DNA of 64,000 nucleotides from Eledone cirrhosa (taxonomy: Eukaryota). Shown one piece after another: positions 5,739 to 43,508 of the stretch. A program made the translations under genes and the position numbers. How positions within the stretch are numbered: position 1 is the first letter of the stretch; each line of letters starts with the position of its first letter. The notes beneath the pieces were generated by a model. The model saw only the letters and a list, made by a program, of their open reading frames with translations, was not told the DNA's origin and ran no database searches. The stretch lies in contig OZ024762.1 of the NCBI GenBank assembly GCA_964016885.1, forward strand, positions 11,842,001 to 11,906,000. The letters are read 5' to 3'.

Positions 5739-5791
5739 ATTTTGTCTGATGAGGACGTACTGTTGTACATCCGAAATATGTATAATAAAAT
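5739..5791 (+). ncRNA. minimal type I hammerhead ribozyme (family H1)
   Basis: ATTTTGT-CTGATGA-GGACGTAC(tgtt)GTACATCC-GAAA-TATGTA-TA-ATAAAAT. Full catalytic core; AUA triplet, predicted cut after 5784. Confidence 0.85.
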
Positions 5792-6317
5792 GTTATTGAT
5801 CAAAAGAACATCTATTTTATTAATACTTATATTTTAATATATATATATATATATATATATTACATATACATGTTTTGTCACCACCTTTCCATTACTTCTC
5901 ACCCTTCTGTATATATATATATCACGTGCACACCTGCATATACGTGTACTCAAACACACATGTAAATATATATATTCCCACATATACGCATGTATATATA
6001 TATACACACACACGTCAGGGTTGCAGCCATTTACTAACGATGTACTTAGAAGTTGAGTGACTAATTCTGTTATGAGACACACTATAACTGAAGCACCAAC
6101 CAACAACTTTGGTAAATGGCACACTAACATCTTACACCCTTAAACTAAAGTAAACAACCTTTAAGTGGAATCTTGACTCTTAATATCCTGTACCACATGA
6201 AACCACATTAGCGAGACACTCTTGTAAACTACAAAACTATACTATGATTGCATCACATTAAATATTAAAGTCTTTAATACAGGAAATTTCCACTACTGTC
6301 GATCCACTAATATTAGA

Positions 6318-6525
6318 TGGATTGGCAGTATTAGGAGAGTCGGACGCCATGCTTTGCAGCATAGAGTTGCGGCCCTTTATGATCTGAGTTCAAATCCTGC
6401 CAAGGTTAACTTTGCCTTTCATCCTTACGAGGTCAATAAAATAAAGTACCAGTAATGTACTGGGGTCGATTTAATCGACTTTCCCTTCCTCCAAAATTGC
6501 TGGCCTTGTGCCTATATAAGAAACC
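6318..6525 (+). mobile_element. tRNA-derived SINE (family B)
   Basis: TTGGCAG..TTAG head, GAGTTCAAATCC B box, CTTTGCCTTTCATCCTTACG.GGTC.ATAAAATAAAGTACCAG body; many copies in the window. Confidence 0.8.
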
Positions 6526-7328
6526 ATATATATATATATAGAGAGAGAGAGACATATATATATATATATTATATATATAGAGAGACATATATGCATATAA
6601 ATATATATATATATATATATATATATATATATATATATAGACATATATATATATATATATATATATATATATATATATAGACATATATGCATATATATAT
6701 ATATATATATAGACATATATGCATATATATATATATAGACATGTATGCATATATATAGATATATATATAGACATGTATGCATATATATAGATATATATAT
6801 AGACATACATGTATTAACATACAAGCATACAAACATCTACCTCCACACACATACAAACACAACAGCACAGTATTGTATTTGTTATTCATGCTAAACGAGA
6901 GAGGTAGGGAGAGGTAGAGAGAGAGAGATACTATATATATCCTCAGCTAAATATAACTGACCATGGCATCAGTGGATGCTTTAGATCTGAAATAATGTTC
7001 TCATTGATTTTGAATCTCTCTCCCCAACAGTCCAGATTTATACACACACATACATACATATATATATATATATATATATATATATATATATATATATATA
7101 TATATATATATATATATACACACAACCCATGCTAGCGTGGAAAAATGGACGTAAAACGGTGATGATGATGATGACACACATCTATATATATATATATATA
7201 TATATATACACACACACATACATAGTGTATGTCATGTTGACCTATTACATGTGTTAAAGCTGAGCACCAGCGATACCAGCATCACCATACTGACCACAAC
7301 AGAGCAGTTTGTCCTAACTTCCACCATA

Positions 7329-7842
7329 CTGACCACTGTTTGACAACAACAGAACAGTTTGTCCAATGTTGACCACAACAGAACAGTTTGTCCAATGTTG
7401 TTGACCACAACAGAACAGTTTGTCCAATGTTGTTGACCACAACAGAACAGTTTGTCCAATGTTGTTGACCAAAACAGAACAGTTTGTCCAATGTTGTTGA
7501 CCACAACAGAACAGTTTGTCCAATATTGTTTGACAACAACAGAACAGTTTGTCCAATGTTGACCACAACAGAACAGTTTGTCCAATGTTGTTGACCACAA
7601 CAGAACAGTTTGTCCAATGTTGTTGACCACAACAGAACAGTTTGTCCAATGTTGTTGACCACAACAGAACAGTTTGTCCAATGTTGTTTGACCACAACAG
7701 AACAGTTTGTCCAATGTTGTTTGACCACAACAGAACAGTTTGTCCAATGTTGTTTGACCACAACAGAACAGTTTGTCCAATGTTGTTGACCACAACAGAA
7801 CAGTTTGTCCAATGTTGTTGACCACAACAGAACAGTTTGTCC
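7329..7842. repeat. ~32-bp minisatellite (~16 copies)
   Basis: GACCACAACAGAACAGTTTGTCCAATGTTGTT, with 29-33-bp variants. Confidence 0.95.
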
Positions 7843-7949
7843 TGTCATAGAATCAGAGCCCCCTTTGGCCAGGTTCCGTACAACATATCTCAGGCAAGGT
7901 GATATATTAAACATCTCTCTCATTTTCTGATCTATACACACTTCTCTCT

Positions 7950-41400: not shown

Positions 41401-41604
41401 TACATACATTTATATATATATATATATATATACATACAAATGTATATATACACACATATATATACGTACATATATATATATATACACACACACATATATA
41501 TATATATATATGTATATACACACACACATTTATATATACATATATATGTATGTATATATGTATATATAAATGTATGTATATATGTATATATAAATGCCTA
41601 TATA

Positions 41605-43128
41605 TAAAGCCTTTGACAGAGTTCCACGTGCAGTAATCTGGTGGGCTCTTAGAAAACTAGGAGTAGATGAATGGCTTGTGAAAGCGGTACAAGCCATGTA
41701 TAGGGGAGCAGTCAGCAAAGTTAGGATTGGCAATGAGTATAGCGAGGAATTTAACGTACAGGTTGGGGTCCACCAGGGCTCTGTTCTTAGCCCTCTCCTG
41801 TTCATCATAGTCCTGCAGGCAATAACGGAGGAGTTTAAGACCGGATGCCCATGGGAACTCCTGTATGCTGATGACCTCGCACTCATAGCTGAATCTATGG
41901 TAGAACTAGAGAATAAATTCCAAACCTGGAAGCAGGGACTAGAGAGAAAGGGCCTCAAAGTCAACATGACAAAGACTAAGGTCCTTATAAGTAGACGAGA
42001 AAACAGAACCCAGATCCCCTCAGGGAAATGGCCTTGCTCAGTATGTAGGAAAGGTGTAGGTAGGAACTCCATTCTTTGCCCCAAATGCAAACAATGGGTA
42101 CACAAGAGATGTAGCGGGATCTCAGGAAGCTTAATTAAGAATGTAGGATTCACATGCAGCAGCTGTGCTGAAACAGCAAGCAAACAGCCACAGGAAACAA
42201 GTACCACCAATCTCTGGGAGGGCCCTGTAGAAACAGTAGACAGCTTCTGCTACCTAGGTGACCGAATTAGCAACGGAGGTGGGTGCTCAGAAAGTACAAT
42301 AACTAGGGTAAGAACGGGATGGAAGAAGTTTAGGGAACTACTACCACTGCTAGCTGCAAAAGGCTTCTCCCTCAGAATGAAAGGCAGACTGTATGATGCG
42401 TGTATCCGAACAGCGATGTTGCATGGTAGTGAGACCTGGGCGCTGAAGGTGGAAGACCTACGTAGATTAGAGAGAAACGAAGCCTGCATGCTCCGATGGA
42501 TGTGTAACAGTAATATACGTGAACGACAAAGCATAAATGAATTGAGAGAGAGACTGAGCATAAGAGGAATCAAATGCTGTGTGCAGGAGAGGCGGTTACG
42601 CTGGTATGGACATGTGATGCGTATGAAGGATGACAGCTGCATAAAAAGGTGCAGAGCACTAGAAGTTGATGGAAACCGCGGAGTGGGGAGACCCAAGATG
42701 ACTTGGGATGAGGTGATAAAAGCCGACCTTACCCAACTACACCTCTCAAAGTCAATGACACACGACCGTGACTTCTGGCGTCACGCAGTAATACAGGGTA
42801 CCCGACCTCCCATGGGTACATGCTGAAGCATATAAACAATATGCCCCCCCCCCCCCACCGCAAGGTGGTCGTGGAGGTGCCACGGCAAAAAAGCACCCAG
42901 CCCACACTGTAAAGTGGACGTGTAGGCGCCACGAAAAAGCACCCAGCACTCACTGTAAATGAGGTTGGTGTTAGGAAGGGCATCCAGCTGTAGAAATCAA
43001 GCCAGATCAGTTCCTGTATGAGCAAGGCATGGTCAGCCGACCAGACACTGCCCACAACAGGACAACCCGTCTAACCCATGCTAGCGTGGAAGAACGGACG
43101 TAAAACGGTGATGATGATGATGATGATA
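41605..43128 (+). mobile_element. 5'-truncated RTE-clade LINE (RT ORF open to the stop at 42826, then 3' UTR)
   Basis: KAFDRV, GVHQGSVLSPLLF, YADD, RRLRWYGHVMRM, GRP motifs; (GAT)n tail; inserted in (TA)n. Confidence 0.95.
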
Positions 43129-43288
43129 TATATATATATATATATATATATATATAAATCAGGATGGATTCAGTCTGAAGCTGGTTAGGCCATTACTCAA
43201 TGGAGTACTCCGATACTTGGGATAGTAAAGTATGGTTATATTATAGAGTCAGAGCCCGATGGCTGAGCTCCTGCCATTTCAACAAGCT

Positions 43289-43362
43289 AGTTCCAGACTC
43301 ATATATATATATATATATATATATATATATATATATATATATATATATATGAGTCTGGAACT
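43289..43362. repeat. perfect 74-bp palindrome centred on (AT)25
   Basis: AGTTCCAGACTC-(AT)25-GAGTCTGGAACT. Confidence 0.9.
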
Positions 43363-43442
43363 TGACTATCCAGGAAGCTCCAACCGTTAAGGTTGTCTTT
43401 TTTTTTCCGGGTATGTCAATATTTATTTATAAAACAAATCTG

Positions 43443-43508
43443 TATTTTATCTGATGAAAGCGCACCATAATTTACCTTGGTTGCCCTTGAAATATGTATC
43501 ATAAAATA
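43443..43508 (+). ncRNA. minimal type I hammerhead ribozyme (family H1)
   Basis: TATTTTAT-CTGATGA-AAGCGCACCA(taatttacct)TGGTTGCCCTT-GAAA-TATGTA-TC-ATAAAATA; perfect 8-bp stem I, AUC triplet, predicted cut after 43500. Confidence 0.85.

Follow-up and report, generated by a model that had tools for sequence, protein, structure and literature searches.

The DNA analysed here, referred to as the window, is a 64,000-nt stretch of Eledone cirrhosa contig OZ024762.1 (positions 11,842,001 to 11,906,000, forward strand). It is repeat-rich animal-type DNA, 39% of which is tandem repeats, and contains open reading frames (ORFs) of LINEs (long interspersed nuclear elements) as well as tRNA-like heads of SINEs (short interspersed nuclear elements). 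In a descriptor scan of the window, three complete type I hammerhead ribozyme motifs were found, which make up the family described below as H1:

5738..5792 (+): copy 1, type I hammerhead, core 5746-5784, stem I of 8 bp
31966..32030 (-): copy 2, type I hammerhead, core 32022-31974, stem I of 8 bp
43443..43508 (+): copy 3, type I hammerhead, core 43451-43500, stem I of 8 bp

CUGAUGA, GAAA and UAUGUA with a permissive triplet are present in all three copies, which also share the general hammerhead features CUGANGA, GAAA, U16.1 and H17. Stem I is paired at 8 of 8 positions in every copy. Stem II consists of three pairs, a C-C or C-A mismatch and four to six further pairs: 3+4 bp flanking C-A in copy 1, 3+6 bp flanking C-C in copy 2, and 3+6 bp with C-C plus a U bulge in copy 3. 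Cleavage is predicted after 5784 (triplet AUA), after 31974 on the minus strand (AUA) and after 43500 (AUC). A preliminary description of this DNA had placed three copies at 5739 (+), 31966 (-) and 43443 (+), with a common CTGATGA...GAAA-TATGTA core, retained stem I pairing and cuts after 5784 and 43500. The copies, core, pairing and cut positions all agree with our analysis, except that stem I of copy 1 begins at 5738 and that 31966 marks the lower end of copy 2. The distal helix, the stem II mismatch, the fourth relative and the likely placement at retroelement ends reported below go beyond that description.

The full architecture with a stem I of at least 6 bp was matched three times in the window and not once in 150 local dinucleotide shuffles. 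An Rfam scan of the window gave no hammerhead at the gathering threshold, nor was any present among the 150 listed of 359 matches at E<=1, the miRNA rows being (TA)n artefacts. This result lowers only the membership of H1 in the Rfam models; short-helix-III variants in the literature came from descriptor searches. The interpretation of copies 1-3 as intact hammerheads of type I, with a dimer-type stem III built on a palindrome, is supported.

Covariation was measured on a plain MAFFT alignment of copies 1-3 (19 pairs), in which standard pairing was found in 54 of 54 alignment cells. Five of the nine stem II pairs differ on both sides among the copies, and stem I varies by G-U wobbles only. The covariation score, which derives from three sequences, is inflated by kinship and is not of R-scape grade, was equalled by 1 of 500 shuffles; slid controls paired at 34-51%. 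The earlier claim that stem II differs in sequence and still pairs thus stands for these two-sided changes, but the stem is no clean helix, being broken by the mismatch and, in copy 3, by the U bulge. A model built from copies 1-3 further detected, at 40 bits, a more distant relative:

4757..4837 (+): fourth hammerhead, with the layout of copies 1-3

Its stem II is 3 bp, C-C and 6 bp, its palindrome is TATATA, and its stem I is different in sequence and still pairs. Adding this motif, on a model-fitted alignment, brings the pairs altered on both sides to 10. It carries a G at position 17 and is therefore likely inactive; judged from this substitution, the fourth motif is probably dead. A heterodimer of copy 1 with this motif was considered and is unlikely, as their stem I arms cross-pair over just 3-4 bp. 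About 210 nt from the fourth motif (4765-4829) and aimed towards it lies an unrelated intact hammerhead at 5076-5042 (-), with CUGAAGA and GAAA-GGAC-UA.

Each H1 hammerhead is part of a short, AT-rich repeat, whose units and remnants are distributed as follows:

5633..5836 (+): repeat unit of copy 1, between two (TA)n arrays, with GGGTATGTCA at 5718-5727
31926..32069 (-): repeat unit of copy 2, with GGGTACGTCA at 32069-32060 and its 3' end at (TA)n 48 nt past the cut
43409..43513 (+): 5' part of the copy 3 repeat unit, from GGGTATGTCA up to a LINE insertion
43514..44430 (-): 5'-truncated LINE in the copy 3 tail, with ATAT on both flanks
44431..44471 (+): remainder of the copy 3 tail, equal to the copy 2 tail in 33 of 36 columns, ending at (TA)n
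57376..57417 (-): solo tail without hammerhead, 95% match to the copy 2 tail over 42 nt

Of 110 alignment columns, 87 are the same in copies 2 and 3, and copy 1, whose (TA)n begins 52 nt past the cut, is more diverged than both. In every copy the 3' end lies at (TA)n, 48-52 nt beyond the predicted cut, while (TA)n lies within 10 nt of 4.1% of the window positions outside tandem repeats. The start of the solo tail lies 3' of the cut position by a few bases, and the LINE in copy 3 is 93.5% identical to a LINE copy at ~46625-47552. Upstream of the hammerheads stands the 10-mer GGGTAYGTCA, to which the window has exactly three matches, one before each of copies 1-3 (shuffle mean 0.14, maximum 2); it is missing at the fourth motif. 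Its conserved G|GTAYGT resembles a splice donor. Some PLEs (Penelope-like elements) have a spliceosomal intron in the pLTR (pseudo long terminal repeat) or 5' region. Neither a tandem array nor an inverted pair of H1 was found inside the window.

In copy 2, an upstream arm (32041-32059) is predicted to pair with the tail (31942-31961) over 14 contiguous plus 5 pairs, and 12 pairs are predicted between the corresponding parts of copy 3. This distal helix extends stem I in both copies and was as stable in only 6 and 18 of 1000 shuffles, respectively; in copy 1, no distal helix above chance was found (581 of 1000 shuffles equally stable). Just upstream of copy 2 is a 46-nt repeat (32086-32135; also 58847-58891) whose (TA)n end faces away from H1. 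It has its own depth peak in the public contigs described below and is joined to H1 at 32011 in one of them; perhaps it is a second element's tail that makes up the opposite end of the insertion.

The family was followed in public contigs of runs X1-X3, all from one sample (organism A), which contain about half of the words of window positions 31500-34300. Alignment of the copy 2 region at 80% likeness returned 4266-5026 records per run. In X1, the summed depth was 3.7 million at the tail, 0.9 million over the core's 5' half and 0.07 million at GGGTAYGTCA, a 5'-ward fall that is the pattern expected from 5' truncation; the listed long contigs had depths of 4-66. Because contig depth is no copy number, we conclude only that the H1 family is very abundant. 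The loose contig ends include a subfamily resembling copy 3 and a member whose free position 7 is G, and at the 3' side they are heterogeneous and AT-rich (agreement 0.53-0.61), with no fixed next monomer. Each of the three runs also contains a contig of 391-393 nt with two head-to-head copies, one arm of which is identical to copy 2 over 127-132 nt, so that the contig represents either a young sibling or a rearranged allele. A joint between 32030 and 31974 in run X3, listed without direction, touches the cut site.

Sequence variation within the family respects the predicted structure. Among variants of at least 3%, called under a likeness filter that favours intact copies, TATGTA was replaced by the perfect palindrome TATATA in 46% of the depth (X1). 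Of the 13 listed variants, eight fall at paired sites; loop 2 accounts for three and the internal loop for two. Six of the eight paired-site variants preserve the pair alone, and the other two need a listed partner change that co-occurs in copy 3; the null probability for eight random transitions fitting the pairing is 0.027. No variant of at least 3% was found at the 11 core positions (p 0.17, not significant alone). Taken with the complete pairing of the alignment cells and the pairs of the fourth motif, these stem variants and the TATATA form support the proposal, already made in the preliminary description, that selection on the stem structure acted in the source elements.

Stem III comprises two pairs, is palindromic and is unstable as a hairpin: the 8-nt segment AUAUGUAU is predicted to form a self-duplex at -2.2 kcal/mol, compared with +4.7 kcal/mol for the hairpin, and the TATATA form a self-duplex at -3.2 kcal/mol. 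UAUGUA had been expected to pair with itself through two G-U pairs, and the 8-bp duplex bears this out. For copies 1-3, respectively, the strand-swapped dimer was predicted at -21.0, -22.6 and -18.8 kcal/mol, and two monomers with stem III open at -15.0, -16.8 and -13.8 kcal/mol. The stem I arms of the three copies cross-pair at 8 of 8 positions in all nine combinations. On these folding models, H1 RNA would likely cut only when two copies pair. An alternative off-switch, in which GGGUAYGUCA pairs with stem II's 5' arm, was also considered and was not adopted, because it outdoes stem II in copy 1 alone (-10.6 vs -6.1) and not in copies 2 and 3.

The further suggestion that the genomic copies may still cleave is unsupported. 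The same-strand copies (1 and 3) are 37.7 kb apart and have no close partner, copy 1 is predicted to misfold in its context (pairing 0.00 for stem I and 0.09 for stem II), and the tail of copy 3 is split by the LINE, its stems I and II being retained in the predicted ensemble (pairing mostly 0.7-1.0). The solo genomic copies are most likely idle.

From their position and structure, we consider it probable that the H1 motifs are dimer-cutting type I hammerheads near the 3' end of (TA)n-ended repeats, and that these repeats are 5'-truncated ends of a Penelope-like element (PLE), namely of its pseudo long terminal repeats (pLTRs). The position near a defined 3' end, the subfamilies, the abundance and the inverted pair in public contigs were directly observed, as were the 5'-falling depth and the solo tail; a hammerhead near a defined 3' end, variable 5' truncation and inverted copies are traits of PLEs, and the pLTR identity is likely. 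Penelope membership is inferred, because no Penelope ORF was found in the window.

In PMC4209133 (Cervera and De la Pena 2014), PLE hammerheads are described as mostly solo, some of them in opposite-strand pairs 100-700 bp apart, as poorly cleaving and weakly active as dimers only, and as having in some cases a small palindromic helix III. H1 shares with them the type I topology, the CUGANGA/GAAA core, a U-NNNN-A palindrome after GAAA, U-rich 5' and AU-rich 3' flanks, a long helix II, the mostly solo occurrence, opposite-strand pairs and a high sequence variability within the genome. Closest in layout is the D. willistoni PLE motif (GAAA U-AGCU-A UA, with A-U closing helix II; PMC4209133 supplement), which resembles copy 2 in its AUA triplet and its A-U closing pair; the Aedes aegypti PLE motif is also similar (PMC4209133). 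In contrast to the PLE hammerheads of that paper, H1 has no bulge at 9/10.1, its palindrome may have tandem G-U pairs, and its helix I is 8 bp compared with 4-5 bp in the S. mansoni families. Specific to H1 relative to those motifs are the 12-19 bp distal helix (two copies), the fixed C-C/C-A mismatch and the lack of a linked ORF in the window.

Inverted, 5'-truncated PLE copies, tails and a microsatellite bias have also been reported (bioRxiv 2021.04.23.441226). For the Poseidon element PAc of Anolis carolinensis, reverse transcription starts internally, 3' of the hammerhead, at AT-rich targets; hammerhead cleavage needs or gets the help of the element protein, and insertion in vitro proceeds without cleavage (Frangieh et al. 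2024, PMC11167929). H1 likewise lies shortly 5' of an element 3' end and at AT-rich targets. It differs in that the PAc ORF begins at stem II and its reverse transcription starts 85-92 nt past the cut (PMC11167929), whereas H1 ends 48-52 nt past the cut. A PAc-like ORF start at the core ATG was rejected, as the H1 frames, read from the sequence, close within 11-17 codons.

By analogy, two hammerheads in a tandem transcript of the source element would swap strands, with their AUAU(G/A)UAU segments pairing as an 8-bp helix and stem I assembling between the copies. Slow cleavage after AUA or AUC might follow, perhaps aided by an element protein as in PAc. The reverse transcriptase (RT)/GIY-YIG protein of the element would nick AT-rich DNA, and reverse transcription would begin within the RNA ~50 nt 3' of the cut. 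If an early stop were usual, it would leave stubs of 40-200 nt in (TA)n arrays.

Several points weigh against this assignment. None of the 282 scanned short frames matched a Penelope RT or GIY-YIG Pfam family; the scan covered 282 of the 333 frames of at least 38 aa, the other 51 lying in LINE or tandem regions, with shorter and low-complexity frames outside it, and a window without a linked Penelope ORF is what would be expected if the copies are stubs. The published >80% consensus has a bulged base at 9/10.1 and G10.1-C11.1, with exceptions within its own set (PMC4209133); H1 lacks the bulge, and its stem II is closed by A-U rather than G-C in two of three copies (G-C in copy 1 alone). The cofold minimum is predicted to be 2.6-4 kcal/mol lower than the active dimer. 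In context, copy 2 is predicted to keep stem II in place and to shift the register of stem I (0.02; constrained fold -24.5 vs -27.5). The depth profile gives no copy number, and divergence also reduces depth towards the 5' side. Finally, a short non-autonomous element would also account for the truncation, the AT-rich targets and the solo copies.

Such an element is the most serious competitor: H1 would itself be a non-autonomous unit of ~140 nt, a solo retrozyme or hairpin mini-element that spans GGGTAYGTCA through the tail and is moved in trans by a PLE. We consider this unlikely. In this reading the unit folds as a single long stem I topped by the hammerhead. Speaking for it are the significant arm/tail pairing in copies 2 and 3, the start of copy 3 homology exactly at GGGTATGTCA, and the restriction of the 10-mer to the three copies. 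Non-LTR retrozyme monomers that are dispersed and derived from pLTRs have been described (Li et al. 2026, bioRxiv 2026.07.22.740005), and the axolotl retrozyme hammerhead HHR_Amex2 resembles H1 in being type I, with a two-pair helix III and a four-base cap, and is more active as a dimer (Cervera and De la Pena 2020, PMC7229834). Yet the depth declines gradually in the 5' direction without a sharp edge, and copy 1, in which a further 85 nt precede (TA)n, shows no significant distal helix. Moreover, retrozymes are defined by tandem repeats (220-390 nt in the species described) and by circular RNAs (PMC7229834), whereas H1, at ~140 nt, is shorter than these monomers and occurs as solo copies in the window, with no tandem array and with heterogeneous 3' loose ends. 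A bolder version, in which H1 is a still-mobile ~140-nt hairpin element whose long stem I and C-C mismatch replace the loop-loop contact and whose G|GTAYGT donor makes the hammerhead intronic, is speculative and improbable. If it were true, splicing would decide whether a message free of the ribozyme or a template carrying it is made, which would offer a reason for the retention of introns in PLEs.

The preferred assignment to PLE ends also accommodates the inverted pair, a PLE trait that speaks against a SINE-like hammerhead element moved by an abundant APE-type LINE. The window does contain tRNA-like SINE heads as well as LINEs whose open frames are long, and hammerhead SINEs are known in Schistosoma (PMC6765202); however, the 3' end of H1 differs from the (GAT)n end of the LINE, no tRNA-like head adjoins H1, and it is the LINE that inserted into H1 and not the other way round, so that we regard this origin as very unlikely. 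We hold it to be just as doubtful that the host has kept these copies as working ribozymes that cut their surrounding transcripts. The three cores are intact and copy 3 keeps its stems in the predicted ensemble, but copy 3 is interrupted by the LINE, no nearby host gene was found in the window, and the intactness is attributable to the youth of the copies, as the differences between copies match subfamily variants and one arm of the head-to-head contig equals copy 2. Chance resemblance in AT-rich repetitive DNA might be suspected from the isolated folds of the motifs, which are not unusually stable (z -0.75 to -1.6), and from the sequence pattern alone, which also matches microbial DNA: pattern scans returned 0 and 60 loci in viral contigs, 17 in metagenomes and 3 in prokaryote genomes. 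On these 80 loci, the H1 model reached at best 33 bits, with 11 matches from pattern-selected metagenome loci and one from L080. As the eight alignments shown lack a well-paired stem II, the microbial and viral loci were not taken as relatives. The shuffles, the covariation with its double compensatory changes and the pairs of the fourth motif refute chance resemblance, to which we attach next to no probability.

Dimer-type hammerheads at Penelope ends are already known from many animal phyla, including molluscs, and H1 adds another family to this described class; its importance is modest, and H1 alone leaves existing knowledge unchanged. What it contributes is an example of very high abundance in which the subfamilies are young, compensatory variants and a pair of G-U and A-U palindromes occur naturally, and the stem I arms are cross-compatible; together these features make it convenient for tests of cleavage by dimers and of cleavage assisted by protein. 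Recently active Penelope families have been reported in O. vulgaris, with no mention of ribozymes in the passages considered (PMC13282606). Literature searches on octopus hammerheads and cephalopod retrotransposon ribozymes yielded no description of the H1 family, which supplements and repeat databases may contain. Only the distal helix, the retained mismatch and the donor-like 10-mer have no counterpart in the papers cited here.

Other hammerhead-like sequences also lie in the window. At 33802-33857 (+) lies a hammerhead whose stem II is long and whose stem III contains CCCUUGG, 120 nt downstream of a degenerate one with a CUGAAGG core (33644-33683, +). The motif at 39003-38965 (-), CTAATGA...GAAA after a T-rich run, falls below detection by the H1 model and is possibly a heavily decayed hammerhead. 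Further palindromic stubs beside (TA)n, at 44498-44630 and 33370-33520, show GAAA followed by a short palindrome, CGATCG or CATG (minus strand), and resemble hammerhead ends from other families that have decayed. Another group, of near-perfect inverted repeats (9876-10008, 58072-58213, 53038-53079 and 11738-11764), in which the 133-nt member at 9876-10008 (97.7%) has hammerhead-like CTGATGA...GAAA in both arms, possibly represents inverted Penelope-type ends.

Among the remaining repeats, two LINE ORFs at 47023-49563 (-; 846 aa) and 41594-42826 (+; 410 aa) encode an RT with an embedded PHD-like finger. A homologue search returned proteins of 44-53% identity, mostly unnamed, and we take these ORFs to be RTE-like. 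A Pif1 helicase fragment at 45760-46306 (+; Pfam PF21530, E 6e-8) is probably a Helitron remnant. A young SINE-like repeat, 96-98% identical among its copies at 31089-31408, 35557-35875 and 2438-2755, has a tRNA-like head just at the Rfam threshold.

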